DNA of 64,000 nt from a virus (IMGVR_UViG_3300008255_000105); one strand, 5' to 3'; shown: positions 5,501 to 41,582, counted from the first letter of the stretch. Numbers and translations: made by a program. The notes: a model not told the origin generated them from the sequence alone.

Positions 5501-6897
5501 CCGTTCCTTAAAATCTGCGGAAATCTAAGCATTTGACAATGCTCCAAATATTCGCAAACCTACTGGTTTAAAACCGGCACCGTAAGGTCCGGTAAAGAAT
5601 CGATTCAAAATATTCCTCCCTGCATTTGTATCTGCGTTGCCTTTATGACCACAGCCAAGGCACAGGAATATCTCTCCATTCCGATTCTTCTTATCAGCAT
5701 GACCACATTCAAGGCAAGTGATACTGGTATTATAACAGGGAACAGAACGGAAGGAAACACGGTTTTCTTCACATCCCATTTGAACCCGATTCAACCAATA
5801 TCGCCACACCCACGAGCCGATAACTCGACGCATATTTTTGGAAAGGCGTCGTCTTTCCTTTGTCTTGTGATTCAAGTTTGACAACTTTTCAACAACCACA
5901 AGATCAATCTTTTCATTAGAAACTATTTGTTTTGCAACCTCATCCATTCGTTGTTTCAATGCCCTTCTGGCTCGCTTTTGTCCTTTAGAGCCATGTTCAC
6001 AACGAACTATTCTCTGCACACATTCTTTTATGTCTCTGCCCAACTGCTCACCGTTAGAAAAAGAAGCCAAGGCGTTGATGCCAGAGTCAATTCCGATAGC
6101 ATTTTTGCCTTCCTTCTTCTCTCCTGTTTGAATCTCAAAGCAGAACTGGACATCTTTGTCTGTTATGATGTAGCTATTCAATCTCTGTCCCAAATTGTTC
6201 CATTTGTTAAAATGCTTGTGATATCTGATTGGCAAGTCAATGATAGTCTTTTCCCCAATAGAAGACAGATGTAGCCAACCATCGAATTCGTTTGTCTTAG
6301 ATGGCTGAATATCAGCGATAGTGCAAGAGACATACATCCGATTGCCCTTATGCTTTGGCTTTTCTGCTGTCAATGCTTCTGCCTTCTGCTTCAACTGATT
6401 AGCTTTGTTGGAATACTTCGCCTTTTCGGCTTTAGCTAACAATCGCTTCTTATCATTGGCTATTCGCTCTTGCGAGGCTTTAATCATATCTATTGCTTCA
6501 CGAGCACAGACTTTTCTAAGTCTCGCTGATAGCCAAGACTCTGGTTTATTGACTATATCCTTTAGCAATTCTGCTTTGGTTGGGCAATCATCCCAGAAAG
6601 AATCAATGAACAGATTGCAAAGTCTACCATATTCAGTCAGCACAGTTTTAAGTTGCTCACGCTTGGTAGCGGTAGCGAATTTCAAAGAACACTGTGTTGA
6701 CCGAATTATCTTCATTTTTCTGTCTTCGCCTCTGCTTCTTTAGCTTCCGCTTCTTTCTATTTTCACTACTTCTTTTGCCGTATATTTTGTTGGAAAATGA
6801 CGCCATTAGAGAAGCCGGGTTTGCGAATGCTCACATGTTTCCCTTTCGTTTCCCGCAGTTATCCATAGATTTTCGCAGATTTAGTGCCAACTGTTAT
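5501..6897 (-). mobile_element. tnpB-only IS (IS607/IS1341-like derivative), copy 1
   Basis: both termini are shared with the 33414-37414 element: RE side ccgttccttaaaatctgcggaaatcta... (5501-) and LE side atccatagatttYcgcagatttagtgccaactgttat (6861-6897); similarity stops at 5500/6898. Confidence 0.6.
5525..6715 (-). CDS. tnpB: TnpB (RuvC-like, OMEGA/Cas12-ancestor family), 396 aa
   Basis: RuvC motifs IGIDSGI, VVVEKLS, NADTNAGRNI plus C-terminal zinc finger CLECGH...CLGCGH; ~85% identical to the 33438-34628 copy. Confidence 0.85.
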   Translation of the reverse strand: MKIIRSTQCSLKFATATKREQLKTVLTEYGRLCNLFIDSFWDDCPTKAELLKDIVNKPESWLSARLRKVCAREAIDMIKASQERIANDKKRLLAKAEKAKYSNKANQLKQKAEALTAEKPKHKGNRMYVSCTIADIQPSKTNEFDGWLHLSSIGEKTIIDLPIRYHKHFNKWNNLGQRLNSYIITDKDVQFCFEIQTGEKKEGKNAIGIDSGINALASFSNGEQLGRDIKECVQRIVRCEHGSKGQKRARRALKQRMDEVAKQIVSNEKIDLVVVEKLSNLNHKTKERRRLSKNMRRVIGSWVWRYWLNRVQMGCEENRVSFRSVPCYNTSITCLECGHADKKNRNGEIFLCLGCGHKGNADTNAGRNILNRFFTGPYGAGFKPVGLRIFGALSNA

Positions 6898-15401: not shown

Positions 15402-15887
15402 CTAAAACAAACTCCCAGAATCATCAGCCTCAAGTTTTGTCCTTGCTTTCTCGTCTTTCTGATCTTTGGTTAAAATTTCGCCATAACATTCAGAAACTGT
15501 TGAAACCAAATCTAAAATCTTTCCAAGTTGTGTCTTTTTTCCACTCGTAACTATTTTATAGCACTTCCCAATTTGAATTTTATCAGCAGAAGCCAATGTC
15601 AAAGGATAAACCTCAATTGATGAAGCAGATGGGATCGGGATGATATCCCCATCTTCATCAACGCTTACAGGGGATCCTCTAACCGTTAGATATTCATCAG
15701 AAATTTCTGTTTGGGAGATGATTAAGATAGTAGAAATTTCAAATGGTTTTGTTTTAGATTCATATGTAGATTTTAAGAAAAAAGGTGTTATAATTGATGC
15801 AAACATAGCAATTATTGAAATAACAACTAACAACTCAACTAGACTAAATCCTCTTCGTTTCCTGATCATTTCGGTCCTCTCTCTCAT
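15402..15887 (-). CDS. type IV pilin-like protein
   Basis: N-terminus KRRGFSLVELLVVISIIAM matches the class III prepilin signal (G F-x-L-x-E-L-L hydrophobic). Confidence 0.7.
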   Translation of the reverse strand: MRERTEMIRKRRGFSLVELLVVISIIAMFASIITPFFLKSTYESKTKPFEISTILIISQTEISDEYLTVRGSPVSVDEDGDIIPIPSASSIEVYPLTLASADKIQIGKCYKIVTSGKKTQLGKILDLVSTVSECYGEILTKDQKDEKARTKLEADDSGSLF

Positions 15888-15891
15888 GCTT

Positions 15892-17835
15892 TCAGATAGT
15901 TTTTAGTCTTTCTAGTTCATCAAGTTTTAAGAAATAGAACCCGAAAACAGTAGGATACTGCAAGGTTCTTTCTGTGTCAAGATCAATATCTTCCAAATGA
16001 GTTCCCTGTGGTTTTTGAACCCACTTATGAATGTTGCCAAAGAATCTAATAAAAAATTTTTTCACCCAATCAACGATTTGGTTGTGTAAATAATCTTCAA
16101 ATTTTTCAAAGAGGATCAATGCTATTTCATATGGTGATTTCCCATGAGTTACCAATAATTCATAACAAGAGTCTAAAACTTCAAATGGCATTAATTCTCT
16201 TTCATCTTCTTGGTTTTCTGCAAGTTCCGCAGAAGCAACAGTTTTGTAGATCAATCTAGCAAGAACAATCGCAAGTTGTGCGCTCTGTTCGTCGTTTTGA
16301 TTTGCAAGTGCTTTTAGATAAAAATACTCCAAAATTTTGTTAATCTTTGTTTTTCGGCAACCAGAGATTGGGGCAAAATCTCCTTGCATATCACCAAGTT
16401 TTGTCGCATACCCAACGGCTGTTTCCGACATATTGCTTGTGCAGAGCACAAGCCCTCGACAAATATTTGAAAGATTGGCAATTTTTGTTGCACGGATTCT
16501 CGCTTGTATATTTTGATCTGCAATTCTGTAATCCGCCTCTCCAAAACCAAGCCCTTCATTCAATTTACGCAAATCTACTGATTCTCTTTGAAACGGTTCA
16601 GCAATTGATTGTTCGTAAAAATTAAGACCAAGTGTTTCACATAAATCCTTTGAAATATTTCTGGTAGCATCAGAGTTATAAGATGTTGGGAAAGAGACAC
16701 AGGTAACAACATCGTGAGGATTCAAATTATTTCTGATTGCCCATTCATAAGCTAAAATTGCAACCAAGACAGAATCTCGGCCACCAGAAATAGAGATTAA
16801 CATCCTATCAAAAGTACCAACTTTTCTGAAATAATCACCCATTCCCATAATAATTGCATTAATTATTTCTTCGATTTCATCAAAAACTACAACTTTTTCT
16901 TGTTTTTTAATTCTTGATCGATCAATGTTTATTCCCTGTGGAATTTTGACTGTATAAATAGAAGGAATTAACTTTTCTCTTTCAATAAAATCTTCTGCTT
17001 GACTTTTCCAGGTTGTATCTCTTGCCCTTGATGCCCAGACTTCATCAAAATCAACATCTTGGATAACAATTCCTGGTTGGAATCGTTCCAATTCAGCTAA
17101 ACATTCACCCTCTTGAATAATATAGCCACCACCATCAAATGAAAGTTCTCCGTTCCCACCAACTTGATATGCTGCTAGAAGAATCGAATGATCATCAATT
17201 GATCTTTGTCTCAACATCATTTTTCGATTGTTTTCGACTCCTGATCTAAAAGGCGATGCGTTCAAAATAGCATGAACAACTGCGCCTTCATAACCATGGT
17301 GCCTCATTGGCCCATCTGGCACCCAAGAGGTTTCACAAATTTCACAAGAAAAAATGAAGGAACCATTAATTTCAAAAAGGAGATCGCCAAAATCTGGATT
17401 CTCTAAACCAAAACCAATTTTTGTTAAATCAAATTGTTTGCCTTCTGTGGTTGTTCTTTTTTCATAAAAAATACCATAGTTCGGAAGATGTTGTTTGGGG
17501 GTGATACCGACAACTTTACCTTTATGAATCACAAAAGCACAATTAAAAATTCCACGACTCGGGATCGGCAGGAATCCACCAATCACAAAAATTGTATCTA
17601 GATACATTGTAGCTTCACAAAATCTATAAATTTCTTCTATTTCTCGGTGAAAGAAAAATGGCAACAAAAGAAAATCGCTACAAGGATAACCTGTTACACA
17701 ACCTTCTGCATAAACCAATAGATTACAACCAAGATCATTTGCATGAGAAGCATAAGGAAGCATTAAATCTACATTGTTCTTAAAATCACCAACTTTAGGA
17801 TTCATGGAGACAACACCGAGACGTGCTTTTGACAT
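15892..17835 (-). CDS. nadE: glutamine-dependent NAD+ synthetase (nitrilase domain + PP-loop synthetase)
   Basis: 647 aa; SGGRDS PP-loop motif; N-terminal CN-hydrolase-like region. Confidence 0.8.
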   Translation of the reverse strand: MSKARLGVVSMNPKVGDFKNNVDLMLPYASHANDLGCNLLVYAEGCVTGYPCSDFLLLPFFFHREIEEIYRFCEATMYLDTIFVIGGFLPIPSRGIFNCAFVIHKGKVVGITPKQHLPNYGIFYEKRTTTEGKQFDLTKIGFGLENPDFGDLLFEINGSFIFSCEICETSWVPDGPMRHHGYEGAVVHAILNASPFRSGVENNRKMMLRQRSIDDHSILLAAYQVGGNGELSFDGGGYIIQEGECLAELERFQPGIVIQDVDFDEVWASRARDTTWKSQAEDFIEREKLIPSIYTVKIPQGINIDRSRIKKQEKVVVFDEIEEIINAIIMGMGDYFRKVGTFDRMLISISGGRDSVLVAILAYEWAIRNNLNPHDVVTCVSFPTSYNSDATRNISKDLCETLGLNFYEQSIAEPFQRESVDLRKLNEGLGFGEADYRIADQNIQARIRATKIANLSNICRGLVLCTSNMSETAVGYATKLGDMQGDFAPISGCRKTKINKILEYFYLKALANQNDEQSAQLAIVLARLIYKTVASAELAENQEDERELMPFEVLDSCYELLVTHGKSPYEIALILFEKFEDYLHNQIVDWVKKFFIRFFGNIHKWVQKPQGTHLEDIDLDTERTLQYPTVFGFYFLKLDELERLKTI

Positions 17836-17866
17836 CGCAGTTCCCTTTCGACACAGGCCCTTGGGT

Positions 17867-18511
17867 TTAGATTAACAATTCATCAAAAAGTTCTGTATCG
17901 AGATTAGTTAAGCAATTGACTTCAAATTTTGAAAGTTGTTTGCCGTTGATCCACCAACTTTTATTGCCATCAGCTAATTCAATAGCAGGCCCATCAAGGC
18001 GGTGAAGCTGGCCATTTTGCAACCAAGATTTTGAACCATTGGCAAATTCAATTGCTGGGCCATCAAGGCGATGAAGTTTGCCGTTGAGCCACCATTCTTT
18101 TGTTCCGTCAAACCTTTCAATAGCTGGCCCATCAAGGCGATGAGATTTGCCATTCAATCTCCATTCTTTTGATCCGTCGGCATTTTCAATTGCTGGCCCA
18201 TCAAGGCGGTGAGGCTGGCCATTTTGCCACCATTCTTTTGATCCATCGGCAAATTCCTTTGCTGGCCCATCAAGACGATGAGGTTTGCCGTTGATGAACC
18301 ATTCTTTTACCCCATTGGGCCAATCAACAGCAGGCCCATTAAGGCGATGAAGTTTGCCGTTGATGTACCAATGTTCTACTCCCTCGGGTGTTTGATATGC
18401 TGGCCCATCTTCTCGGTGAAGTTGGCCATTTAAAGTCCAAGTTTTTACGCCATTATTCTCGATCCTTAATTTTGGATTTTTTTTCATAGTTAACCTCAAT
18501 TCATCAATCAA
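17867..18511 (-). CDS. MORN-repeat protein
   Basis: about 8 tandem repeats of the form W..NG..HR.DGPA. Confidence 0.75.
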   Translation of the reverse strand: MIDELRLTMKKNPKLRIENNGVKTWTLNGQLHREDGPAYQTPEGVEHWYINGKLHRLNGPAVDWPNGVKEWFINGKPHRLDGPAKEFADGSKEWWQNGQPHRLDGPAIENADGSKEWRLNGKSHRLDGPAIERFDGTKEWWLNGKLHRLDGPAIEFANGSKSWLQNGQLHRLDGPAIELADGNKSWWINGKQLSKFEVNCLTNLDTELFDELLI

Positions 18512-19767
18512 TAAATAGTTTCTTCAAAGAATTCGGTTGAATTATCCCAAACACGTTGATACCTTTCGACTTCACTCTTGGGGCCTTGTGCTTTCGCAAG
18601 ATTGTTGCTAATTTTAACTGTTGAAACAGGTTCGTTGATCATCAAAGAACTTATCACTTCAACTGCTTTAACAATAATTGACAAAGGATCCGCACCAAGA
18701 TCATTCGAGCAATTTGTACCAATCCCGAATTTAACACCAATCCTTCCACTGAAAGCTTCAAATAGTTTTTTAGCAAGTGGGGGATTTAATCCATCACTGA
18801 AAAAGATGACTTTTTTGAGTGGGTCAATACCTTGCGATTGATAGAAAGAAATAACCCTTTTACCGAACTTGAAGGGGTCGCCAGAATCATGCCTAATCCC
18901 TTTGTAAAAACCAGAAAGAAATCCAGCAAAATCAGCAAAAAATGCATCATCACCAAATGTATCCCCCAAAGCTATTGATAATGGTTTCCCATAAAAAAGT
19001 TTCCAATTTCTAAGGACAAATCTTTGTGATTTCCTCAAAGATTCATCCCCACCAATTGCCCCCATTATTGCAGCTATAACCATATACAATTCGTGGGCTT
19101 GAGTCCCGCCTGGAATTTGTACGTGTTTCATAGCTAAATTAATATTTGATGTCCCTAAACAAGAAGGACAATTCTCAACAAAATCCTCATAACATTCTTC
19201 TTGCCATTCAGGACTAAAAGCCCGCCTTGTCCCAAATTCTACCCACTCAAAACCAGGAATAGAATTGAATAATTCAATTTTTTCTTTTCTGCGGCGGCGG
19301 CCTTCTTTTTTAAGTTCTTCCATTTGATTTGGATATTTATACCGATAATAAAGAGCATTGATTATTGACATAATAAAGGTCTCTGAATAACTGGATCTAG
19401 CCCAATAATCTTGAGAGTCGATCAAAAATTGTCCATCCCGAATGTCAACATTGATTTTAGGCATTTGATAATTTTTTAAGAATTCAAAATAATCAGAAAA
19501 ATCTTCTTTCTTATACCCAACCCTGAATGAATCAGCAATGAATCCAATTTCGTTTGCAGAAAACCTTAATGATCTGCAATGATCTAATTCTTCTCTAACT
19601 GCTTCAATTGGAATAACTTCAGCTAATTTATTGTCTTTTTTTCTATTGTTGAAAGCAAATCTAACAATAGGGTCTGGGAATCTTTCTTCAATGAAAGCCT
19701 GCATGGCAATTTTATACCAATCTGTATGCAAAAGAGTTTTGATAATTGGTTCTGGGTTTGTTAGCAT
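18508..19767 (-). CDS. pncB: nicotinate phosphoribosyltransferase
   Basis: HTDWYKIAMQA resembles the PncB N-terminus DTDAYKLHMQQA; start trimmed to ATG 19767, which has GGAGGA 9 nt upstream (the listed ORF begins at a TTG). Confidence 0.75.
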   Translation of the reverse strand: MLTNPEPIIKTLLHTDWYKIAMQAFIEERFPDPIVRFAFNNRKKDNKLAEVIPIEAVREELDHCRSLRFSANEIGFIADSFRVGYKKEDFSDYFEFLKNYQMPKINVDIRDGQFLIDSQDYWARSSYSETFIMSIINALYYRYKYPNQMEELKKEGRRRRKEKIELFNSIPGFEWVEFGTRRAFSPEWQEECYEDFVENCPSCLGTSNINLAMKHVQIPGGTQAHELYMVIAAIMGAIGGDESLRKSQRFVLRNWKLFYGKPLSIALGDTFGDDAFFADFAGFLSGFYKGIRHDSGDPFKFGKRVISFYQSQGIDPLKKVIFFSDGLNPPLAKKLFEAFSGRIGVKFGIGTNCSNDLGADPLSIIVKAVEVISSLMINEPVSTVKISNNLAKAQGPKSEVERYQRVWDNSTEFFEETIY

Positions 19768-19806
19768 CTCTGCTTTCCTCCTCGCCCTCTTCCCCGTTTG
19801 TAGCAA

Positions 19807-19839
19807 AGCCCTGCGGCGCTGTGAGAGCGCCGCAGGGCT
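19807..19839 (-). promoter_or_regulatory. 13-bp perfect GC-rich hairpin in the pncB 5' UTR / vWA 3' end
   Basis: agccctgcggcgc-tgtgaga-gcgccgcagggct; no U-tract on either strand. Confidence 0.35.
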
Positions 19840-19851
19840 TACGATCGGCTC

Positions 19852-20664
19852 TTACCCGAAGAGTCCGCTTGAGGCGGCCCCAGAGAAGCCCTTGGAGCTA
19901 CGACTCATCGTTTGCGTCGTGCGTGAGGCGGCTTGGAACTTGAGCCGGACTTCTCGCTTCAAGGCGTCGGGGTCGGTGACCCCGACGCCGACTTCAACAA
20001 TGTCTTTTTCGGGGATTCCCATTCTTGTGAAAATATCTTTGTAGAAATCGGGCCTTGTTCCACCAATCCCCATAGCTGAAATTGTAATCCATTCATTAGG
20101 AACAATATCGTTTGTGATCAACGGAGCCAATTCTTCGGGGTTGCGGCCGGTGGTGTCGCCACCATCAGTCACAATCACAATCGCACCCCGAGGATCAATG
20201 TTGGCTGACCGAATGACTTCATATTGTGCCAAAAAATCAGCAATAGCAGTTTCAATTGTGGGGATCAATGGGGTTCCGCCGCCGGGGAAATAATTCTGAC
20301 GACTCAATCTTGTCGCCTGCTCAACAGGCATGAAAGAATCTAGCATCCCGTTGTTGAGTGTAAATGTGAGAACCAAAATATCATCCCTGACCTTCGAGGC
20401 TTCCATGCCATCAAGGATACAATTGAATCCTTCAATGATACAATCTTCAAATCCACTCAAACTTCCGCTATCATCAAGAATAATCAACATCAAAAATGCA
20501 CTGGAACTTTCCAAATCATCAGGGTCAATTGTTACAGCATCACGAATTGAAGTTGCAATTCCAGGTTGAGCAATTAGATTGCTTGCAGCCGATGAAAGCT
20601 CCCCATTACCAAATGCTTCATTAAATGCACGCTCAATATCGGTGAGTCCTTGGTTTTCAGACAT
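19852..20664 (-). CDS. vWA-domain protein (TerY-like)
   Basis: MIDAS motifs DDSGSLS, GGTPL and VTDGGDT. Confidence 0.75.
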   Translation of the reverse strand: MSENQGLTDIERAFNEAFGNGELSSAASNLIAQPGIATSIRDAVTIDPDDLESSSAFLMLIILDDSGSLSGFEDCIIEGFNCILDGMEASKVRDDILVLTFTLNNGMLDSFMPVEQATRLSRQNYFPGGGTPLIPTIETAIADFLAQYEVIRSANIDPRGAIVIVTDGGDTTGRNPEELAPLITNDIVPNEWITISAMGIGGTRPDFYKDIFTRMGIPEKDIVEVGVGVTDPDALKREVRLKFQAASRTTQTMSRSSKGFSGAASSGLFG

Positions 20665-20709
20665 CGGGATCGTCCTTTCGCCTTCCGTAGTTTAGATACG
20701 TTCACCAGT

Positions 20710-21840
20710 TCAGAGTCGGATTCCCCACTCTTCAATCGGAACGATCCTATCGCCGTCAAACATCTTCACAAATTTCATTCCAGCATCAGCAAATTTCTTG
20801 TAAGAAACTTCAGAAATTGCATCAAATGGGACACCTTCAAATCCAACCGAAGGATTCGGTGGAATGTCGGGAACAGGAGAAGTTCCGTCACGAACGATCA
20901 GGACCTTCTGTGCCAGCGACGGATCCAATCCCATAATTCTTTCCAACAAATGATCAATGCAACATTTCACACAATGCGTTTTTGCTTCACCCTTGATGAT
21001 CAAATAATCAACAGCAAGCAATTGGTTGATGAAGGTATCATCGTCTTCACCAACTTTGTATCCACCAAATGTTTCCGTAACTTCTGGACCCAATGGAGAA
21101 AAATGTTCCGTGTTGGGCCAAGTGCCCTTGATTGAAAAATCGAATTGAGATTTTCTTGCAACTGTGTGGAAAAATGCAAGTTCATACAAGGCCGGGATAA
21201 GCGCATGGCTCGGCTCACCAATCCCGCCGTGGTAGGTCCAAACTGTATGAAGGTATTTCCCCGTGTCCTCAAGTTCTTTGGTGTAGAAAAGAGAATGTTT
21301 GACCATCATTGCATAATTACCCTTCCCGTCATCGGTCGGGAAAACATAATGTGCAATATCGGGATTCGGCATCCAAATTCTATTCTTGATATCTTCGTTT
21401 TTGATCACCGTAAATGGACCTGGGAAGTTGCCATTCCGGTCAACCCAATAGATCGGGTGAAAAATTTGCATCGGGTAGTGCGAATCAAGAGTAATGAAAA
21501 ATCTAGAAATATGATCTAAATTAGCATAGGACCAACGACAGGTTCTCTCAACATCTCCAAGAGCACCTGGGACAACCAATTCATATCCGGGGATACAGAA
21601 AGTGATCTGAAAATCGACCCAAAGGACGCCAATTTTTACTTTATCGTTGAGATGATGTTCAACATTATTTGTTTTTGCCCAATCAACAGCGTCTTGTGCT
21701 CGTTGTTCCTTGGGGGTTGGCCAAACTTCTCCGAGCCGGGGCATGGTGTCCCGCTCGAAGAAAGTTGGCAAGGGTAGCAGTCTCGCATCTGGCATGGTCA
21801 AGGCTCCTTGTTGACTGGTTAGTCGCCGAGATTCTCGCAC
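20710..21840 (-). CDS. pncA: nicotinamidase / isochorismatase-family protein with insertions
   Basis: IGVLWVDFQITFCIPGYELVVPGA vs E. coli PncA LLLVDLQNDFCAGGALAVPEG; DSHYP vs DWHP; catalytic Cys context KTHCVKCC vs ATDYCVKFT. Confidence 0.65.
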   Translation of the reverse strand: MRESRRLTSQQGALTMPDARLLPLPTFFERDTMPRLGEVWPTPKEQRAQDAVDWAKTNNVEHHLNDKVKIGVLWVDFQITFCIPGYELVVPGALGDVERTCRWSYANLDHISRFFITLDSHYPMQIFHPIYWVDRNGNFPGPFTVIKNEDIKNRIWMPNPDIAHYVFPTDDGKGNYAMMVKHSLFYTKELEDTGKYLHTVWTYHGGIGEPSHALIPALYELAFFHTVARKSQFDFSIKGTWPNTEHFSPLGPEVTETFGGYKVGEDDDTFINQLLAVDYLIIKGEAKTHCVKCCIDHLLERIMGLDPSLAQKVLIVRDGTSPVPDIPPNPSVGFEGVPFDAISEVSYKKFADAGMKFVKMFDGDRIVPIEEWGIRL

Positions 21841-21841
21841 G

Positions 21842-23743
21842 TCACACAGAGAATGTCAAGCGGCGCAGACTCTTTCCTGCGAACGAGAACACAGTCCCGT
21901 CGCTAGAGACCCAAACAACATCTCCATCTGAAATAAATTTTGAGGTATCAGGGAATTCTCGTGTCAAAGCAAACTCTCCACGATCTACTTCAAATCTTTT
22001 CAATCCTTCATCCGTAGCAACAAACAAATATCTACTGATGGCTGATTTACTTCCCATAGATTTCATTAATTCTTTATTCTTTTCTTCGTCGTCTGAAAAT
22101 GCTAAAATATCTCCAGCAGAATTAACAACCAAACATTTGTTTTTAAGCTTCGGGCCATCTTTATGTGAGATGAAAATCCAAGCATAATCTTTTGAGAAAC
22201 AGACATTCATATCAATCAATTGTCCAGTGATTCTCGGGAAATCATTAATTATACTTTTGCCTTGACCTTCAACGGGAAAGGTAAAAGCAGAATAAAACGC
22301 TCCAACTCTAAACCAACCAAAACCGAAATTTTCACCAACCCAAATCTTTGTTCTTCTCTGAAGAGCAGAACATATTTTTTTACTAGAAATCCCATCCCCA
22401 TTCTTATAAACATTCCCGTTTTCCAACCAAAAATAAGCATTTGAATTTGCATCAATCATGGGGATGTTATCAACAACATCTAATTGTCCTTTATAACAAA
22501 CCTCTCCATTTTTGATAACTGAAAACTGGCTATTTTCCGCAAAAACTGTTAATTTACCACAAACCCTAATTCTTGATTTTGATGATTTCGGAAGATATTC
22601 GGTTGAGATAACTTCTCCATTTTCACGCAAAATAATCCTATCTTCTAATCTCACCAAAAGCATTTTGTTATTTTGTAACTGTGCAAATAAAATTCTTTTT
22701 GTTCTTTCCATTGGAGAAGATAGAACAATCTCACTTTTGACATTCCCCATAATTTGAATCGTTTGAGTCACAACCCCCCCAGCCCCACCACAAGAGGGAC
22801 ATGAGTTTCTCATGTGGACAGATCCACAAGTTGAACAAGTTGTAAATCTTAATGATTCTAATAGCCTTTTTGGAATAGGTTCTCTTCTATCTTGAACAAA
22901 ACAATTATAGAAAATCTGTAAAAGATCATCATTGATGTATCCAAATGGCATTGCATTTTTGGGGAATCCAACTTGTTTTTCATCGAAGACGGTTATCCTA
23001 TTCCTTCTTCGATAAACCCAAGTTTCATCTCTTGTCATTTTACTCGGGGGTGTAAACTTGCCACCATAAGGGCCTTCAAAAGTTAGACCAGTGAAAAGAA
23101 GACAGAGATATCCATACCAGTCAGATTGAACACTATGTCTATTTGAGAATTTTATTTCATTAGCATCTAAATCACAATTTAATGGATCAACATAATCAAC
23201 AGAAAAAACACGGCAAGGCCAAGAATCATATTGCATACTATCTGCGTCAATAAAATATGGAGTCAAATCTGCATTAGAAACCATTAAGTTAAATTCACTC
23301 ACATCTCCAACAACAACCTTTTGTGAGTGAATTTCTTGCATCGTGTTAGCAAAACCAAGAAAAATATTCAAGATATCATTTATATCTTTTGACCCTCTAA
23401 ATTTTTTATTAAACCATCTTGAAAGCAGAACATGATCTGACAAAAGTTGCATGGTGTAACCAATAACCATTTTGTTATTCAGAATCAAATCAGTTGGGCT
23501 TACAACATTAGATGGTAAATTTCTTGGAAATGCTGGCAGTTTTGATTGATATTCGTCAATTCTATCTTTGACTGCTTTTTGTCTCCAAGGTTCTGTGAAA
23601 TCTGGGTGATTCGGTGGTTTATAAATCTTAAAAAGGATATTCCCCAATTTGTAAATAGTTGCTTCGCCACCCTCTGAAAAGTAGTTGTTTACATCATCAA
23701 TTTTCTCTGTCCGACCGTTAACCTGGATGTTGAAGTTACCCAT
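21842..23743 (-). CDS. Ser/Thr protein kinase-like protein with Zn-ribbon and C-terminal beta-repeat region
   Basis: GGEATIYKL (Gly loop), FKIYK (Lys), HSQKVVVGDVSEFN (catalytic-loop-like), IDADS; CSTCG...CPSCGG. Confidence 0.6.
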   Translation of the reverse strand: MGNFNIQVNGRTEKIDDVNNYFSEGGEATIYKLGNILFKIYKPPNHPDFTEPWRQKAVKDRIDEYQSKLPAFPRNLPSNVVSPTDLILNNKMVIGYTMQLLSDHVLLSRWFNKKFRGSKDINDILNIFLGFANTMQEIHSQKVVVGDVSEFNLMVSNADLTPYFIDADSMQYDSWPCRVFSVDYVDPLNCDLDANEIKFSNRHSVQSDWYGYLCLLFTGLTFEGPYGGKFTPPSKMTRDETWVYRRRNRITVFDEKQVGFPKNAMPFGYINDDLLQIFYNCFVQDRREPIPKRLLESLRFTTCSTCGSVHMRNSCPSCGGAGGVVTQTIQIMGNVKSEIVLSSPMERTKRILFAQLQNNKMLLVRLEDRIILRENGEVISTEYLPKSSKSRIRVCGKLTVFAENSQFSVIKNGEVCYKGQLDVVDNIPMIDANSNAYFWLENGNVYKNGDGISSKKICSALQRRTKIWVGENFGFGWFRVGAFYSAFTFPVEGQGKSIINDFPRITGQLIDMNVCFSKDYAWIFISHKDGPKLKNKCLVVNSAGDILAFSDDEEKNKELMKSMGSKSAISRYLFVATDEGLKRFEVDRGEFALTREFPDTSKFISDGDVVWVSSDGTVFSFAGKSLRRLTFSV

Positions 23744-24659
23744 TCTTCCTTCTCCTGATTGCGATCAATGAGGTATCATCAATCAGGAGTGAATTCTCTG
23801 TCCGAACTTTTCTATTGTCCCAATCAACAACAGTCCTATTGGCTTGCATCATGCCAAATAAACGTTGCAAAGTTTGCGGGTTTCTGAAAAAAACATCAGT
23901 TGAAATTATTTCATCAATAGAAGGGACTACCTTGTCGGTTCTGCCAGGAAGAAGTTCCCCTTGAGCTTCTTCCAAGAACATGACCCCATCTGATCCTACA
24001 ACAAGACTTTCAACATCTTCTGTCGCAAGCTCTTCATGGAATGAAAATTCGAAACAAAGTGGTTGAGTTTCATGGAAACTTGAATATTTACTTGCAATAA
24101 TCTCTTCGTGTGTTTCTCTGAACCCTTCAATTGCACTATAGACAATATAAGGCGGGGCATTATTTTCAAATGGACCTATTTGAGTCCTTTGACCATTAAG
24201 ATAATAAACCCCATCACCAATTGAAAAAATAGTTGTTTTATCTTCTGTTACAACAAACCCAATCAATGTTGCAGCAAAAGTATCAATCATATCTTTAATA
24301 GTTTCTAATAAACAAAAATTCTTATTAGATTGATAGATTCCAAAACTTGTTCTTTTGATTAAAGAGACCAAAGATAAATGTAGACTACTATAAATAAATT
24401 CGTTTATAGTATCCCAATATCCAGTCCTGATTTGAGTCGCAATTGAATTAGCTAAATAATTAGCAAGGATACTTGATCCAATTTGGGCGTTATCGGTGCT
24501 CCCACACCCGTCTGAAACAACTCCAATAAGAAAAAGTTTATGATGATTAAGAGCAATGGAATCTTGATTCGGCAATCCTTTCAAGCCTATTTCATTGCCT
24601 AAGTGTTCTCTACCAATGATTGAAGCACTGGTAGTTTCGAACCTCTCCATCAGATCCAT
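23736..24659 (-). CDS. PP2C-family Ser/Thr phosphatase
   Basis: VVSDGCGS and VVGSDGV metal-binding motifs; overlaps the kinase gene by 8 nt. Confidence 0.75.
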   Translation of the reverse strand: MDLMERFETTSASIIGREHLGNEIGLKGLPNQDSIALNHHKLFLIGVVSDGCGSTDNAQIGSSILANYLANSIATQIRTGYWDTINEFIYSSLHLSLVSLIKRTSFGIYQSNKNFCLLETIKDMIDTFAATLIGFVVTEDKTTIFSIGDGVYYLNGQRTQIGPFENNAPPYIVYSAIEGFRETHEEIIASKYSSFHETQPLCFEFSFHEELATEDVESLVVGSDGVMFLEEAQGELLPGRTDKVVPSIDEIISTDVFFRNPQTLQRLFGMMQANRTVVDWDNRKVRTENSLLIDDTSLIAIRRRKNG

Positions 24660-24678
24660 TTACTGCTCCATCCTTCGG

Positions 24679-25272
24679 TCAGGTGGTTGAATTTCGGCAA
24701 TTAAAGCACAAACTATCTAGGTTATCTAATGGGTATGGGGAAAGAGATTTACATTTTTTGCAAACACAAAGTTCTTTTAATTCTTCAATAGCATCTTGCA
24801 TTAATCCTAAATTTAATTCATAAGCATCAAACAAAAGATCTTGACCAGAAACAGATTTAATTAATGGGAGATTATTCAGTGCCAAGTAGAACAGAAATTT
24901 ATCAATCATTCCTATTTCCTCGACGGTTAATGTCCAGTCTTCTTTTCTTTTAGAGACATAATCAATCAAATCAGAGTCAAACGAATATTCGGAGATACTC
25001 GTCCTCAATTTAGCTTTTTGAATTTTGTCCCAAGCTTTTTGTTTTATAAGAACTAGAAGTCTTTTATCACATTCAATATCTTTAATTCCACCACAATCAT
25101 CATAGATACCAATGAAAATTTGTGAAAAAACATTTACTGATTGAAAAGGTCCTGAATATTGTTCCATATAATTAGATAAAAATTGTTTTTCATTAGCTAA
25201 TAAACCAACTACTTTTTCATCTTCTATAATTGGAATTCTAGTTGCAGCGCACAAAGAATTGTAATATCCCAT
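24679..25272 (-). CDS. hypothetical protein with C-terminal CxxC...CxxC (197 aa)
   Basis: ORF in operon. Confidence 0.45.
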   Translation of the reverse strand: MGYYNSLCAATRIPIIEDEKVVGLLANEKQFLSNYMEQYSGPFQSVNVFSQIFIGIYDDCGGIKDIECDKRLLVLIKQKAWDKIQKAKLRTSISEYSFDSDLIDYVSKRKEDWTLTVEEIGMIDKFLFYLALNNLPLIKSVSGQDLLFDAYELNLGLMQDAIEELKELCVCKKCKSLSPYPLDNLDSLCFNCRNSTT

Positions 25273-25718
25273 TAGGGAGCCCCTTCTTTTGTTTTAGTTG
25301 TTATTTCTACATATTCTTTATCTTCAATCATTTCCTTAATCATAGCAATAATATCAGATTCTGAAACAAAATCACCAATTTCCCTATCAACGCCCTTTAT
25401 TGCTGATTTTCTGCTGACATTATTTAAAGAGGTGCTATTTTTTTGAACACCAACCACCCAAGCACCACTATCTATATCATCAAGTAATTCACAAAAAACT
25501 TTTGCTTTAAAATCATTGGTCTTCGATGAATTATTAGAATTAAAATTAACAAAAACAATATCAATTTTTTCTAGCAAAGTTTTTAAAGAATTTTTCCCAT
25601 CAGATAGATCTGGAAGTTTTAAACTTATAATATAAAACATATTTATCAATTTTACAGCCCAAGCAGATGATCTTTCTTCACTAAAACCAACCAATAGAGC
25701 ATTATTCTTGTCATCCAT
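25272..25718 (-). CDS. hypothetical receiver/STAS-like small protein (148 aa)
   Basis: ALLVGF...; paralogous to the next gene; overlapping ends. Confidence 0.4.
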   Translation of the reverse strand: MDDKNNALLVGFSEERSSAWAVKLINMFYIISLKLPDLSDGKNSLKTLLEKIDIVFVNFNSNNSSKTNDFKAKVFCELLDDIDSGAWVVGVQKNSTSLNNVSRKSAIKGVDREIGDFVSESDIIAMIKEMIEDKEYVEITTKTKEGAP

Positions 25719-26262
25719 CTTTTTTATCTTCCGTTTCTTCGGTTGCTTCCGTTTCTTTGACTTCTTCCGTTTCTTCGGTTGCTTCGGCTTCTTCAGCGCT
25801 GGTAATAGCTTCTAGAATGTTTTGGATAATTATTTTTGATGCTGCAAATTTGTAAAGTTTTACTCCACCAGCTTCTTCTATTTTGACTCTTATTGGTTCA
25901 CTAATTATTTGTGTTAAACCAAAAACAACAAGACTTGGGAAATTCTGGACTAATGATTTTATAACAGTCAGATTTTTTGAAGCAACGCTTTCCACAGGGA
26001 CAATGATTGAACAGTAATCTTTATCTTGAATTAACTTCGCTAAACTTTTTCCACCATTTTCTAAATCTTTTTTGACAATTGAGTTCACCTCAAAAGCATC
26101 TAATAGTTTTTCAACAAAACTATTTACGAAGTTATCGGGGGCGAGACCAACGATCAAGATGCTCTGCTTCTCGGATGACATATTCGTTCTACCTTTCGGT
26201 GGTTTTTGTGATTCGATCAAATTGTTCTTTGAGAGCAGGAAATTCTTGCATCCTTTGTTCAA
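25711..26262 (-). CDS. hypothetical receiver/STAS-like protein with acidic tail (start possibly at M28, 26181)
   Basis: SILIVGLAPD...; C-terminal EETEE repeats. Confidence 0.4.
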   Translation of the reverse strand: MNKGCKNFLLSKNNLIESQKPPKGRTNMSSEKQSILIVGLAPDNFVNSFVEKLLDAFEVNSIVKKDLENGGKSLAKLIQDKDYCSIIVPVESVASKNLTVIKSLVQNFPSLVVFGLTQIISEPIRVKIEEAGGVKLYKFAASKIIIQNILEAITSAEEAEATEETEEVKETEATEETEDKKDG

Positions 26263-26528
26263 GATATGCCTTCGTCTCTTCTATCCCTTTTGTGGCCATC
26301 ATAAAAACTAAAAACTGGATATCTGAAAGTTTTTTTTCAAGTAATTCAATTTCTTTTTTAATCCTCGCTCTTTCATAGCCTTCTCGATCATCTCTTAAAA
26401 CTTTCGAAACAATAGCATTAACTATACTTGAAAATAATACTACACCGAATTCTTTCCACTCTCCAAAACCTTGTTTCCTTGTTCTCATGCTCTTCCCTTC
26501 TCCAAACATTCTACCACATCCGATCAAA

Positions 26529-27473
26529 TCAGCCGGTGGGTGGAACAAAATCTTCCCTTAATCTCTCAGGTGTCACTAAGCAAGGATCTAAATAGTTGCC
26601 CTTTTTTGAATTACATAAGCAACACATTGTTTGAATGTTGACCGGATTATCATTCCCACCTTTTGACTTTGGAACAATATGATCATGAGTCATCAAATAA
26701 TTCTCACCATCATAAAGATTGAAGTGTGGTCTATTTTGATTGACAGGAAGTTCTAAAACAAATTTAACACCAACTCGCCCACATTCAGAACAAACAAGTG
26801 AATCTTTAAACGCCATCAAACGAACAGAATTTAATCTTGATTTATAAAAACAACCATCTATTTCTATTTCTAGATCATGCGTAGATCCAAGTAATGGAAC
26901 TATTTCATCAACTGAAAACTCTTTCAAATTAATCAAATTTGTGTTCCCAAGTTTTGTCCCAACATTCCCTTGGTTTTTCTTTTTTCTCTTCTTCTTTTTG
27001 CCCTGCCGTTCCACAAAAGGTAGGGTTTTGCTTATTCTAGAAGAACTTATGGAATTCATTACTTTAATAAACTCAAAATATTCAAGATCTATTTTTGAAA
27101 ATAAATCTAATTTGGTTATATCCGCAAACATATTTATTTTCAAAATAGCAGGGACAAATCTTGTGTCAATTCTTTCTGTGTCGAAAGAATAACTTTCAAA
27201 ATCTTCTTCGTCCATTTCTAAATCAATAAGTGCATCAATTCTATCAAAAACATCTAAACAAAAAAACAACAATTTCTCTTCATCTTTTAATTCCACACCA
27301 CTAATTAATTCTATCAATCCCATAGAAAGAGAGGTTATCTTAGATAATGGAATTTGATCTTCTAATTCAAAAAAGTCAATTTCACCTAACCCTAAAATGA
27401 CACAGATAGCTTTTTCACCTGGAAAAATAGGCATTTTAGAGATTGCACAGACCGGATGTTTTAATTCAGACAT
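26529..27473 (-). CDS. HNH endonuclease-domain protein (314 aa)
   Basis: C-terminal THDHIVPKSKGG...NIQTMCCLCNSKKG (HNH motif). Confidence 0.65.
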   Translation of the reverse strand: MSELKHPVCAISKMPIFPGEKAICVILGLGEIDFFELEDQIPLSKITSLSMGLIELISGVELKDEEKLLFFCLDVFDRIDALIDLEMDEEDFESYSFDTERIDTRFVPAILKINMFADITKLDLFSKIDLEYFEFIKVMNSISSSRISKTLPFVERQGKKKKRKKKNQGNVGTKLGNTNLINLKEFSVDEIVPLLGSTHDLEIEIDGCFYKSRLNSVRLMAFKDSLVCSECGRVGVKFVLELPVNQNRPHFNLYDGENYLMTHDHIVPKSKGGNDNPVNIQTMCCLCNSKKGNYLDPCLVTPERLREDFVPPTG

Positions 27474-33437: not shown

Positions 33438-34628
33438 CTAAGCATTTGACAATGCTCCAAATATCCGCAAACTCACTGGTTTGAAACCGGCACCGTAAGG
33501 TCCGGTGAAAAATCGATTCAAAATATTCCTCCCTGCATTTGTATCTGCGTTGCCTTTATGACCACAACCAAGGCACAGGAATATCTCTCCATTCCGATTC
33601 TTCTTATCAGCATGACCACATTCAGGGCAAGTGATACTGGTATTATAACACGGAACGGTTCGGAAGGAAACACGGTTTTCTTCACACCCCATTTGAACCC
33701 GGTTCAACCAATATCGCCACACCCACGAGCCAATAACTCGACGCATATTTTTGGAAAGGCGTCGTCTTTCCTTTGTCTTGTGATTCAAATTGCTAAGCTT
33801 CTCCACAACCACAAGATCAATCTTTTCATTAGAAACTATTTGCTTCGCAACCTCATCCATTTGTTGCTTCAATGCCCTTCTGGCTCGCTTTTGTCCTTTA
33901 GAACCATGTTGGCAACGATTGATGCGATTAACGCAACCTTTTATATCTCTGCCCAACTGCTCGCCGTTGGAAAAAGAAGCTAAAGCATTGATACCAGAAT
34001 CAATCCCTATGGCATTTTTGCCTTGCTTCTTTTCACCAGTTTCAATTTCAAAGCAAAATTGAACAGAATCTTTTGTTATGATATAGGAATTAAGTCTTTT
34101 TCCCAAGTTGTCCCATTTATTGAAATGCTTATGGAAACGAATTGGCAGGTTCATCACGATCTTATTTCCTATTGAAGCTAGATGAAGCCAAGCATCGAAT
34201 TCATTAGTTTTAGACATTTGAAGATCAGCAATAGTGCAACTGACATTCATTCTATTGCCTTTGTGCTTTGGCTTCACGGCTATCAATGACTCTGCTTTCT
34301 GTCTCAATTGGTTCGCCTTTGTTGCGCTTTTAGCTTTTTCTGCTTTGGCAAGAAGCCTCTTCTTTTCGTTGTTGGTTTTTTCTTGGGAAGCCTTGATCAT
34401 GTCAATTGCTTCTCTGGCACAAACCTTTCTAAGTCTAGCTGAAAGCCAAGAATCAGGAGCGTTCACGATGTCTTTTAACAATTCTGCTTTGGTTGGGCAT
34501 TGCTCCCAGAAGGAATCGATGAACAGGTTGCAAACTCTTCCGTATTCGGTCAACACAGCACCAAGCTCCAGCCTCTTTGCGGAGGTTGAAAACTTGAGGC
34601 TGCACTGTGCTGACCGAATAATTTTCAT
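33438..34628 (-). CDS. tnpB: TnpB (RuvC-like nuclease), 396 aa
   Basis: same motifs as copy 1; C-terminal third nearly identical. Confidence 0.85.
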   Translation of the reverse strand: MKIIRSAQCSLKFSTSAKRLELGAVLTEYGRVCNLFIDSFWEQCPTKAELLKDIVNAPDSWLSARLRKVCAREAIDMIKASQEKTNNEKKRLLAKAEKAKSATKANQLRQKAESLIAVKPKHKGNRMNVSCTIADLQMSKTNEFDAWLHLASIGNKIVMNLPIRFHKHFNKWDNLGKRLNSYIITKDSVQFCFEIETGEKKQGKNAIGIDSGINALASFSNGEQLGRDIKGCVNRINRCQHGSKGQKRARRALKQQMDEVAKQIVSNEKIDLVVVEKLSNLNHKTKERRRLSKNMRRVIGSWVWRYWLNRVQMGCEENRVSFRTVPCYNTSITCPECGHADKKNRNGEIFLCLGCGHKGNADTNAGRNILNRFFTGPYGAGFKPVSLRIFGALSNA

Positions 34629-34929: not shown

Positions 34930-36447
34930 TTACAGGTACATAACAGTTTTCTTGAGCTTGCCTAGTTCAATAACATTCTCTATAGGTTCGAACCAAAAAT
35001 ACTTTCCCTCCCAATCCGGCTGCCTTTGAATAAGTGAATTCCAACTATCAATGTGATTTGAATTTGGGCCGTCACAAAAAGTAAGTCTTTCTTTTCCAGC
35101 GAAGGCGCTTTCTCTCGGATTCCTATCCAATAGGGCCTTTGCCCTATCAATCCCCTTTTCACCAGATACCGTATTCGTAGCAACGCTCTTCTTTATTATT
35201 TCCTCTGGAATATCCTCATACTTATCAAACACAATCATCTTGTATTGTCTTTTAATTTTGCTTTGAGAATTCCATCTCCCACCAGGGATTATGGTGAATT
35301 CTCCATCAAAGAATCCGATGATATTATCCACCAATTTAGTGCTTGAGATATAAATCGGGAACACGTCGTCTTGTTTCCTGTGTCCTGATTTACAAGGAAA
35401 GCCTAAATATCTACCGATGGACTGATATAAAGAATCATCGGTTTTATAAGCATCAATATGCATACGAATATGCATAGTCTCATTTAGTGTCTTTCCTGCT
35501 CTCATTGCGCCTTTGATTATAATAATAGAAGGCTTTTTGGGTTGCTCTGATAAAGCACCATCTAACTGACTAATTTCGTAATCTCCATCAATAGAGTATT
35601 CCCTAAACCAAATATTGGGATAGTTTTGCCCCAAATATCTTTCTATAACGAAGGGGGCTTGCCCCTGTGTCCTAATCACAAGATGACCGTTTCCATTCTT
35701 GTTGCAAAGACCAATGAATTCGTCTAGTCTTTCTTTAAAGAATGGAGTGACACAAGACTTCCTATCATCGGCCACTTTTGTTTCATGAACGACTACAAAT
35801 CTCCCATCATTCTTTGCGTCTTCGATTGAATAATAATTATCACTCAATTCCAATTGGATACAAGAAAATGAATTCTCTCTTATTTTTGACTGAAGGACAG
35901 ATGCAAATGGGGTAGCTGACAGAGAAAGAACATAGTTATGACCATTATTCCAATCAGAAATAGGCATACCATATTCTATGCCCAATTTATCAAACAGCAC
36001 ATTAAGTGGACGACTATTGCCTAGAGCCTGATGGCATTCGTCAAGGAAGATTAGCCTTCTATCTACCGTTAGATCTATTTTATCGGGGATCGCATATTCT
36101 GCCCCGCTTTTCTTAGTAAAATCTGCGAGATGGAAAACTTTAACCCGACAAGAAGCATTAGGCTCGTAGATACCAGCGTTCTGTAACCTTCGTTGCTGTT
36201 GTATTTTGAGTTCATTATCGGAAATATGAAGGATAAACAATATTTCGTAAGTTAGTCCTTCTTTCTCCCATTCATCTTTCATCATTTTAGCGACAAAGGT
36301 AGCCACTCCAGTTTTCCCCTGTTGGGTTTGAGCAATTAGCAATGGCGGGCCTTCATGCTTGGCAAATTCTTCTATAACCTCTTCTCCTGCTTTAATTTGT
36401 TCATAGTAAATAACTTCATCTCCAATTTTCATTTCAGATAGGCTCAT
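34930..36447 (-). CDS. SF2 DExH (DECH-box) helicase-like protein, 505 aa, IS cargo
   Basis: Walker A AQTQQGKTG, motif II LIFLDECHQA, motif III SLSATP, motif VI-like QSIGRYLG. Confidence 0.65.
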   Translation of the reverse strand: MSLSEMKIGDEVIYYEQIKAGEEVIEEFAKHEGPPLLIAQTQQGKTGVATFVAKMMKDEWEKEGLTYEILFILHISDNELKIQQQRRLQNAGIYEPNASCRVKVFHLADFTKKSGAEYAIPDKIDLTVDRRLIFLDECHQALGNSRPLNVLFDKLGIEYGMPISDWNNGHNYVLSLSATPFASVLQSKIRENSFSCIQLELSDNYYSIEDAKNDGRFVVVHETKVADDRKSCVTPFFKERLDEFIGLCNKNGNGHLVIRTQGQAPFVIERYLGQNYPNIWFREYSIDGDYEISQLDGALSEQPKKPSIIIIKGAMRAGKTLNETMHIRMHIDAYKTDDSLYQSIGRYLGFPCKSGHRKQDDVFPIYISSTKLVDNIIGFFDGEFTIIPGGRWNSQSKIKRQYKMIVFDKYEDIPEEIIKKSVATNTVSGEKGIDRAKALLDRNPRESAFAGKERLTFCDGPNSNHIDSWNSLIQRQPDWEGKYFWFEPIENVIELGKLKKTVMYL

Positions 36448-38053: not shown

Positions 38054-38085
38054 GTCTTAACTCCTTTTGTGGTTTTTTCGAAACA

Positions 38086-38159
38086 TAGCCAAGGAGAGAC
38101 TCGAACTCTCAATAACACGGTTCTTGGCCATGCTCCTCTACCAATTGGGATACTTGGCC
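38086..38159 (-). tRNA. tRNA with atypical anticodon loop CCAAGAA (apparent anticodon AAG, C33); identity uncertain
   Basis: 7-bp acceptor GGCCAAG/CTTGGCT; canonical T-arm GAGAG-TTCGAGT-CTCTC; anticodon stem CATGG/CCGTG; no encoded CCA. Confidence 0.55.
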
Positions 38160-38167
38160 ATCAGACA

Positions 38168-38686: not shown

Positions 38687-38815
38687 TGCGCCTCCTTTAG
38701 ATCACTTTTTATTTCATCATTCTCCCGTGAATCTTTAAGTTCCCATTCCATCCCAGGAAATTCTTTTTTGATAGCTTCCATTATTTCTTTTTGTTCATCC
38801 GTCAAAGTTTGGTTC

Positions 38816-39250: not shown

Positions 39251-39252
39251 TT

Positions 39253-41436: not shown

Positions 41437-41483
41437 TCTTCTTCATCATCTTCATCACGGCCCGCCTTCCTCAACAAAAACAA

Positions 41484-41568: not shown

Positions 41569-41582
41569 TCATTTTCCTAAAA

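Follow-up and report, generated by a model that had tools for sequence, protein, structure and literature searches.

A TerY-P-like triad and a long putative nicotinamidase form a conserved cassette beside NAD+-salvage genes in a probable huge phage

Introduction

Bacterial immunity relies centrally on the depletion of NAD+, and phages are proven to counter it by rebuilding NAD+. Here we describe a row of genes at positions 15402-27473, on the minus strand, of a 64,000-nucleotide (nt) stretch from the virus IMGVR_UViG_3300008255_000105, a probable huge phage; the whole stretch is called the window below. In this row, genes of Preiss-Handler NAD+ salvage are interleaved with genes for a Ser/Thr kinase, a PP2C phosphatase and a vWA-domain protein, a combination which resembles the TerY-P triad. 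The pathways NARP1, NARP2 and NARP3 (PMC13464706; Osterman et al. 2024 as cited there) rebuild NAD+ after the action of an NADase defence, as the genes studied here would do starting from nicotinamide. Their chemistry is that of ADPR-PP/Namat, Nampt/NMNAT or PnuC/NadR, whereas the route here would be the deamidated one through PncA-L (a long nicotinamidase-like protein), PncB, NadD and NadE; they have been shown experimentally, while ours is predicted from its genes and comes with a putative regulatory triad. The NAD-jumbo phages (PMC11662467) encode pncB, nadD, nadE and in some cases pncA, like our contig, and host-independent NAD+ synthesis, possibly countering NAD+ depletion, has been proposed for them. 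No kinase, phosphatase or vWA protein is mentioned in that paper (the word "kinase" occurs 0 times), whereas here a divergent nicotinamidase-like protein of 350 amino acids (aa) is locked to the triad. A survey of viral NAD+/ADPr systems from 2022 listed NadV, NadM and NadR as the only NAD+ synthesis enzymes of phages (PMC9503650). Preiss-Handler clusters in jumbo phages are thus already published, and the NAD+-salvage part of our locus adds a member to a known kind.

As summarised in PMC11090510, TerY-P (triad: Anantharaman, Iyer & Aravind 2012; defence system: Gao et al. 2020) combines a eukaryote-type Ser/Thr kinase, whose kinase domain is followed by a zinc ribbon, with a PP2C phosphatase and a vWA/MIDAS protein, and a phosphorylation-dependent switch has been proposed for it. 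These are the same three adjacent gene types as in our row. Compared with that summary, however, the long nicotinamidase-like protein is here an obligate fourth partner, the kinase has an added beta-rich domain of ~300 aa after its zinc ribbon, and the neighbourhood consists of NAD+ salvage genes and NrtR rather than of ter, restriction and secretion genes. Operons of the type nrtR-pncA-pncB have been published among the NrtR regulons (PMC2330246), and the cellular relatives of our cassette likewise have NrtR together with 21-bp GT-N7-AC palindromes before the cassette, pncB and pncA. The published regulons list no kinase, PP2C or vWA gene (PMC2330246), and the copy in the window is without NrtR and its operator. 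We could not identify nrtX-nrtY, the unknown NrtR-regulated genes of that paper. A similar type of neighbourhood is found in the ARG-centred anti-ADP-ribosylation systems (Iyer et al. 2022, PMC9503650), which place a Nudix-HTH regulator, an ADP-ribosylglycohydrolase (ARH) and a phosphatase beside a vWA "chaperone" and are presumably induced by ADP-ribose. Their phosphatases are of the rhodanese, calcineurin, HD or HAD type, and no protein kinase or nicotinamidase has been described in them (PMC9503650); in contrast to them, an ARH gene occurs in 20 of the 79 cellular and one of the 22 viral loci compared here, and the window has none. A full-text search, within the limits of the library used, returned no paper which joins NrtR with PP2C, nor one in which TerY goes together with PncA, nicotinamidase or isochorismatase. 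The obligate coupling of a TerY-P-like triad to a dedicated nicotinamidase-like partner, which in cells stands under NrtR and which huge phages have captured, appears to be undescribed.

Results and Discussion

Four genes that stay together

The following genes of the row, all on the minus strand, are the main subject of this work (E, expectation value; ORF, open reading frame):

23736-24659, minus strand, PP2C-type Ser/Thr phosphatase, 307 aa (Pfam PP2C_2, E 1.1e-15)
21842-23743, minus strand, Hanks-type Ser/Thr kinase, zinc ribbon and beta-rich C-terminal domain in one protein
20710-21840, minus strand, PncA-L, long nicotinamidase-like cysteine hydrolase; the ORF reaches GTG 21840, gene callers start at ATG 21795 (361 aa)
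19852-20664, minus strand, vWA-domain protein, 270 aa; complete MIDAS motif, conserved Ser/Gln-rich tail at the C-terminus
18508-19806, minus strand, PncB, nicotinate phosphoribosyltransferase, 432-aa ORF (Pfam NAPRTase 5.4e-41, NAPRTase_N 1.4e-15)
15892-17835, minus strand, NadE, glutamine-dependent NAD+ synthetase, 647 aa (Pfam CN_hydrolase 1.9e-13, NAD_synthase 1.2e-33)

The conserved unit consists of the first four of these genes; PncB and NadE often lie nearby but can be missing. Fourteen IMG/VR contigs of 42-545 kb hold relatives of the kinase, and a search with the PncA-like family added further phage contigs. Among 185,579 species-representative genomes there were 457 stretches with cellular relatives, of which 80 were fetched; they come from candidate phyla radiation (CPR)/Patescibacteria, cyanobacteria (especially Pseudanabaena), metagenome-assembled genomes (MAGs) labelled as Gammaproteobacteria, DPANN and others, and among them are complete chromosomes, those of Pseudanabaena minima and Archangium gephyra. 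The window proteins and hidden Markov models (HMMs) of their families were mapped on all ORFs, which gave 22 non-redundant viral and 79 cellular loci for all counts below. The full set of PP2C, kinase, PncA-L and vWA was found in 21 of the 22 viral and 65 of the 79 cellular loci, and most of the loci without the full cassette are cut by contig ends. PP2C adjoins the kinase in every viral locus (22/22) and in 74/79 cellular ones (96/101 together), and the kinase relatives adjoin a long nicotinamidase-like gene in almost every locus. Since the four core genes co-occur in ~100 independent loci, their association is far beyond chance. The commonest order is PP2C-kinase-PncA-L-vWA, but in six divergent phage loci (L108, L109, L113, L117, L120 and L122) it is permuted to PncA-L-vWA-PP2C-kinase with all four genes retained, so the set has been kept together through rearrangement.

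The kinase family is large, comprising 1,097 clusters at 50% identity (E<=1e-30), and is present on more than 20 huge-phage contigs. The closest relatives of the window kinase are found in MAGs of Parcubacteria and Uhrbacteria, and phage and cellular copies are intermixed by best match.

A conserved protein of ~199 aa with no Pfam match lies between the kinase and PncA-L in one cyanobacterial locus (L046:11850-12446) and nine others. It may be a lineage-specific fifth component of the Pseudanabaena-type loci.

Three proteins that single-sequence searches miss

PP2C shows the metal-binding motifs DGCG, SDG and DDT in its translation. NadE matches the NCBIfam NAD+ synthase model PRK13981 (4e-88), and its motifs KQHLPNYG, CEICE and SGGRDS can be read in the translation. 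PncB, for which gene callers place the start at 19767 (419 aa), matches PRK05321 (4e-103) and TIGR01514 (2e-79), each slightly below the curated cut-off. For the other three proteins of the cassette, phmmer found no match among the PDB sequences.

The kinase has a kinase domain at ~1-290, a CxxC...CPxC zinc ribbon (C303/C306/C315/C318) and a beta-rich domain at ~330-633; the zinc ribbon is thus fused C-terminally to the kinase domain, as in the definition of TerY-P. Against the PADLOC models it gave a marginal match to MkoA (E 6e-4), and tblastn found weak matches to its kinase domain in two huge uncultured phages. No PADLOC model was matched by vWA, PP2C or PncA-L, and tblastn of 72,556 plasmids gave no match, neither for the kinase nor for a vWA relative. 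Of the TerY-P likeness that had been predicted, the architecture is supported, while no membership in the TerY/TerY-P defence families was found at the level of sequence.

In the vWA family the MIDAS residues (D64-x-S66-x-S68, T131 and D167) are invariant, as are S247 and S254 of the tail. The family profile matched exclusively integrin I-domains in the PDB, although weakly (best E 0.015), and Pfam VWA was matched by three of 21 relatives (best 5.9e-5).

The metal site Asp-His-His(-His) separates nicotinamidases from other isochorismatase-like hydrolases. PncA-L has the isochorismatase-like fold, and its catalytic set D61, K223, C275 and A271 (the cis-Ala of the oxyanion hole) is invariant in 20 sequences including the window protein. 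The spacing of these residues is that of D8, K96, C138 and A134 in PncA of M. tuberculosis, and the D and C segments align to 3pl1. D104-x-H106, H113 and W186-x-x-H189 are also invariant and are collinear with D49/H51/H57 and W68/H71 of PncA, the correspondence of the metal site being one of motif order and spacing. All ten catalytic, metal and substrate residues of PncA have collinear invariant counterparts in PncA-L, with equal local spacing. Pfam Isochorismatase does not match the window protein and matches 7/20 relatives weakly (best 0.0032). Family-specific inserts occupy the N-terminal ~50 aa, ~70 aa between H113 and W186, and the C-terminal ~85 aa. PncA-L is most likely a long metal-dependent nicotinamidase, with an activity predicted from these residues.

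In L026:11912-13648, and also in L011, L030, L037, L041 and L102, the PncA-like protein is ~580 aa long and has an added N-terminal domain of ~240 aa, for which no match among PDB sequences was found.

Salvage genes and NrtR in the neighbourhood

Representatives of clustered neighbour genes were scanned with Pfam. PncB, NadE or NMNAT occurs within 10 kb of the cassette in 9/22 viral and 28/79 cellular loci; PncB itself was found in seven viral and 23 cellular loci, and NadE in six and eight. NMNAT is present in 16/79 cellular loci, often fused to NAD kinase, and Prs (phosphoribosyl pyrophosphate synthetase) in five; Nudix proteins recur too. The ARH genes of the 20 cellular loci are mostly cyanobacterial and lie between PP2C and the kinase, and cyanobacterial versions of the cassette hold one or two of them. 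The predicted link with NAD+ metabolism thus recurs across loci, and in cells it extends to the regulator, since NrtR (NUDIX plus NrtR winged helix) accompanies 55/79 cellular loci and one of the 22 viral loci; it is the conserved unit that proved smaller than predicted, being the four genes and not the whole row.

A recurrent 21-bp palindrome, TAGTGT-N7-ACACTA, was found in the intergenic regions between nrtR and PP2C. Allowing for one mismatch at most, there are 104 sites in 1.88 Mb of loci against 4.4 in shuffles, carried by 62/79 cellular loci and one of the 22 viral ones. Of the sites, 70 fall in the 400 nt upstream of PP2C, 20 are upstream of nrtR, and a few precede PncB, canonical PncA and NMNAT-NAD kinase. 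NrtR operators are 21-bp palindromes built around GT-N7-AC, and ADP-ribose releases NrtR from them (PMC2330246). Because our palindrome fits this published form, we predict that the cellular cassette belongs to the ADP-ribose-responsive NAD regulon of NrtR. In the window, an HMM search revealed no NrtR homologue, and no operator above chance was found there; the HMM search was likewise negative for NMNAT/NadM, ARH, Prs, canonical PncA and Nudix in the window.

In one Paceibacterota contig of 742 kb (L006) the order is PP2C-kinase-PncA-L-vWA-ARH-NadE-PncB, with NMNAT-Nudix and NrtR opposite. This block of ~13 kb (7.2-20.3 kb of the locus) is inserted in the ribosomal-protein S10 operon, between rplB and rpsS. 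Downstream of the cassette in L026 (14722-16104) and in nine other CPR/MAG loci there is a 460-aa protein with a cytidylyltransferase-like (NMNAT-type) and a NAD-kinase part, which would be an NMNAT-NAD kinase fusion.

NadD and the complete route

The absence of NadD from the row, mentioned in the original prediction, extends to the whole window. We did, however, find a NadD homologue elsewhere on the same contig, where the prediction had advised looking: it is a protein of 185 aa at L123:5325-5882 (plus strand), equivalent to ~65,817-66,374, which is ~2 kb past the window end and ~38 kb upstream. All 17 best PDB matches of this protein are NadD (E 1e-19 to 1e-12). With NadD, the contig encodes the whole predicted route from nicotinamide to NAD+ through the four enzymes PncA-L, PncB, NadD and NadE.

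Another candidate for NadD, the CTP_transf_like ORF at 46879-47544 (minus strand), was rejected, as it is a CoaD-type phosphopantetheine adenylyltransferase (PPAT) and all of its 34 PDB matches are PPAT. This ORF has an N-terminal extension of ~50 aa and adjoins the tRNA-Arg gene; it is an unusual gene for a phage.

A model for the cassette

From the gene content, folds, catalytic residues, conserved neighbourhood and operator motifs found here we infer an enzyme activity, a phosphorylation target and a biological role for the cassette. The explanation we favour, to which we would give a probability of roughly 0.55, is that a phospho-switched nicotinamidase cassette rebuilds NAD+ in a huge phage together with PncB, NadE and NadD. 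PncA-L would convert nicotinamide, the product of NAD+-cleaving enzymes, to nicotinate, which PncB would turn into nicotinate mononucleotide and NadD into nicotinate adenine dinucleotide; NadE, with its own glutaminase domain, would then complete NAD+. The kinase and PP2C, with the vWA protein as an adaptor, would form a reversible phospho-switch or a scaffold acting on the nicotinamidase, the entry enzyme. Since the triad always occurs with PncA-L and only sometimes with PncB or NadE, the switch probably acts on the nicotinamidase or on its complex with vWA. Serines that are invariant in the vWA tail, and the inserts specific to the PncA-L family, are candidate sites of phosphorylation. In cells, the cassette would be switched on within the NrtR regulon while NAD+ is being cleaved. 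Huge phages would have taken the cassette without NrtR and expressed it under their own programme, probably keeping up NAD+ during infection, including against NAD+-depleting defences. A role against such immunity is plausible, and the presence of conflict-type genes (Apyc1, cREC and WGR) in the same window is in line with the model.

We put forward more tentatively, and with some doubt, a wider proposal: that this would be the first case in prokaryotes of Ser/Thr phosphorylation gating NAD+ salvage, in a module which is derepressed through NrtR by ADP-ribose and which huge phages have repeatedly captured without NrtR as a regulated, deamidating means of NAD+ reconstitution against immunity. 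The known pathways NARP1-3 are plain enzyme pairs, whereas here the first step of nicotinamide recycling would be tied to a eukaryote-like kinase/phosphatase/vWA switch. If this is true, one branch of the poorly understood TerY-P-type triads would gain a function and a testable substrate, bacterial NAD+ salvage would gain post-translational control, and CPR bacteria, cyanobacteria and their large phages would share a regulated NAD+-rebuilding module. Because its proteins are invisible to Pfam, the cassette escapes current annotation pipelines.

Several observations weigh against the explanation we favour. The vWA, PncA-like and kinase calls of the original prediction stand on motifs, invariant residues and family profiles, and were not confirmed by HMMs at the level of the single sequences: none of the three gave a significant match in Pfam, NCBIfam, PHROG-function or PADLOC. 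The vWA assignment in particular relies on motifs and weak profile matches. Most loci have neither PncB nor NadE within 10 kb, so the core cassette may work without them. A canonical PncA of 226 aa is also present in five cellular loci, which would be unexpected if PncA-L were just the nicotinamidase of the route. Short relatives of PncA-L stand alone in smaller phage contigs, and some of the "cellular" MAG contigs may be mis-binned phages. Lastly, we saw no gene for a capsid, portal or terminase in the 84 kb made up of the window and its 10-kb flanks.

The element and the alternative explanations

There are ~110 ORFs in the 64 kb of the window, 93 of them on one strand, and most have no family match. 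Seven single tRNA genes (Leu, Glu, Thr, Ser, Arg, Asn and Met) are scattered among short ORFs at 38085-54656, and DNA methyltransferases are encoded as well. Other recognisable genes are:

2480-2857, minus strand, stand-alone WGR protein
5525-6715, minus strand, TnpB (Cas12f-like TNB)
33438-34628, minus strand, second TnpB, a paralogue of the first with 87% protein identity, 28 kb apart
36434-37084, minus strand, MerR-HTH plus serine recombinase (IS607-type), ~1.8 kb upstream of the second TnpB
57749-58510, minus strand, homologue of the anti-Pycsar protein Apyc1, metallo-beta-lactamase fold (Pfam Anti-Pycsar_Apyc1 9.5e-21)
58857-60215, minus strand, histidyl-tRNA synthetase
60310-61698, minus strand, PurF-like glutamine amidotransferase/phosphoribosyltransferase (phrog_26846, 2e-109)
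61748-62092, minus strand, cREC_REC (cyclic-phosphate-processing receiver) protein beside the PurF-like gene

Apyc1 is a phage counter-defence enzyme which degrades cyclic-nucleotide signals, and the cREC and WGR domain types are tied to NAD+/ADP-ribose or RNA-end biology. Sequence of the window recurs on contigs of up to 131,852 bp, and megablast of 17 kb against 50,697 phage records gave zero matches. PHROG scans of ten large unknown proteins revealed no structural genes, and the window contains no ribosomal or other housekeeping operon. From its gene style and its relatives in IMG/VR, the element is a probable huge phage.

Could it instead be part of a reduced, CPR-like symbiont genome, or a large extrachromosomal element, with the cluster serving ordinary NAD+ homeostasis in a cell that lacks de novo NAD+ synthesis? 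The nearest kinase relatives in Parcubacteria and Uhrbacteria MAGs would fit, as would the Paceibacterota cassette with its ARH, NadE, PncB, NMNAT-Nudix and NrtR genes, the 84 kb in which no capsid, portal or terminase gene was seen, and the absence of the contig from IMG/VR. The scattered tRNA genes, the crowding of ORFs on one strand, the many ORFs without a family match and PHROG matches such as that of the PurF-like protein nevertheless speak for a phage, and so do Apyc1, the DNA methyltransferases, HNH and the TnpB copies in a window without housekeeping operons; the absence of NrtR and its operator is also what is seen in other viral loci. We consider a symbiont or extrachromosomal origin very unlikely. 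It is similarly improbable, in our opinion, that the kinase, PP2C and vWA are host-takeover factors which phosphorylate host proteins and merely stand beside an unregulated salvage cluster of the NAD-jumbo phage type. The pncB-nadD-nadE clusters published for jumbo phages do come without mention of kinases (PMC11662467), and adjacency is weak evidence where nearly all genes of the window are tightly packed on one strand and the promoter/terminator scan is uninformative. A takeover kinase would, however, not be expected in cellular genomes, and the four genes are found together in several, including those of Pseudanabaena minima and Archangium gephyra, and in two different gene orders, with NrtR operators preceding the cellular cassette.

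The remaining alternative, which is unlikely but has more in its favour, raises the question whether the isochorismatase-like protein is a salvage enzyme at all. The cassette could be a conflict system of the TerY-P type, for defence or counter-defence, in which this protein is an effector or sensor. It would then act on a signal that contains ADP-ribose or nicotinamide, or else on a modified macromolecule, and PncB and NadE would be separate auxiliary metabolic genes which tend to occupy the same variable regions. TerY-P-like triads are described as stand-alone anti-phage systems which also accompany restriction systems (PMC11090510), and Nudix-type transcription factors, ARHs and vWA "chaperones" are features of predicted anti-ADP-ribosylation systems (PMC9503650). 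ARH lies inside the cassette in 20 cellular loci, some loci have a canonical PncA, and the intermixing of phage and cellular copies suggests frequent transfer. On the other hand, every residue of the nicotinamidase-specific set is invariant, those of the metal site included, and PncB, which uses the product of nicotinamidase, is the commonest biosynthetic neighbour in both cells and phages. Within these loci, PncB, canonical PncA and the gene for NMNAT-NAD kinase have NrtR boxes before them as well. Furthermore, the cassette has no conserved nuclease and no other conserved toxic effector, and no PADLOC match was found. We prefer the phospho-switched nicotinamidase as the explanation of the cassette.

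The remainder of the row

The other genes of the row are, in order of position:

15402-15887, minus strand, type IV pilin-like protein with a prepilin N-terminal motif (Pfam N_methyl 2.8e-8)
17867-18511, minus strand, MORN-like repeat protein with 23-aa "NGxxHRLDGPA" units (69-nt tandem repeat, ~5.6 copies)
24679-25272, minus strand, small ORF, 197 aa, no family match
25272-25718, minus strand, small ORF, 148 aa, no family match
25711-26262, minus strand, small ORF, 183/162 aa, no family match
26189-26548, minus strand, small ORF, 119/106 aa, no family match
26529-27473, minus strand, HNH endonuclease, 314 aa (Pfam HNH_5 2.2e-10, HNH 1.1e-8; many PHROG HNH families)

The order of transcription is HNH, the four small ORFs, PP2C, kinase, PncA-L, vWA, PncB, the repeat protein, NadE and the pilin-like protein. 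The ORFs lie where the original prediction had placed them, in a tightly packed minus-strand row with overlaps of 1-8 nt: 8 nt between the kinase and PP2C and between the 148-aa and 183-aa ORFs, 1 nt between the 197-aa and 148-aa ORFs, and 4 nt between PncB and the repeat protein. The remaining intergenic gaps in the row are at most 84 nt. The HNH, PP2C, PncB, NadE and type IV pilin calls all agree with Pfam or NCBIfam matches. Between HNH and PP2C, however, there are four ORFs and not three, and the idea that two small proteins are receiver- or STAS-like found no support in any library scanned, as the small ORFs had zero matches in Pfam, PHROGs, NCBIfam and PADLOC. The 197-aa ORF has a marginal N-terminal similarity to the HNH protein (E 0.025), whereas relatedness between the 148-aa and 162-aa ORFs was undetectable. 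The supposed MORN protein consists of the 23-aa tandem repeats listed above and has no Pfam MORN match, DUF6745 being below threshold.

None of these genes appears to belong to the cassette. HNH, the small ORFs and the pilin do not recur beside it in the loci compared, and the ~100 related loci have no homologues of the small ORFs except in near-identical copies of this contig; a repeat protein is found near the cassette in one other locus (L022). As for the proposed operon, the tight packing is evident but a single transcription unit is not supported: a scan for sigma-70 promoters and terminators gave what is expected by chance and is uninformative on operon structure. Almost all genes at 14.5-30 kb are on the minus strand, and since such one-strand packing is general across the window, a single operon cannot be shown from the sequence.

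Two small observations may be added. A second repeat protein, at 56788-57795 (minus strand), gives a weak DUF6745-type signal like that of the repeat protein in the row, which suggests that the element carries a small family of MORN-like repeat proteins. When the window is compared with the copy of the contig in ENA (L001), an 18-nt indel is seen in the part from the HNH gene to the 148-aa ORF, probably within the acidic repeat tail of the 162/183-aa ORF, and coordinates downstream of it are shifted by 18.

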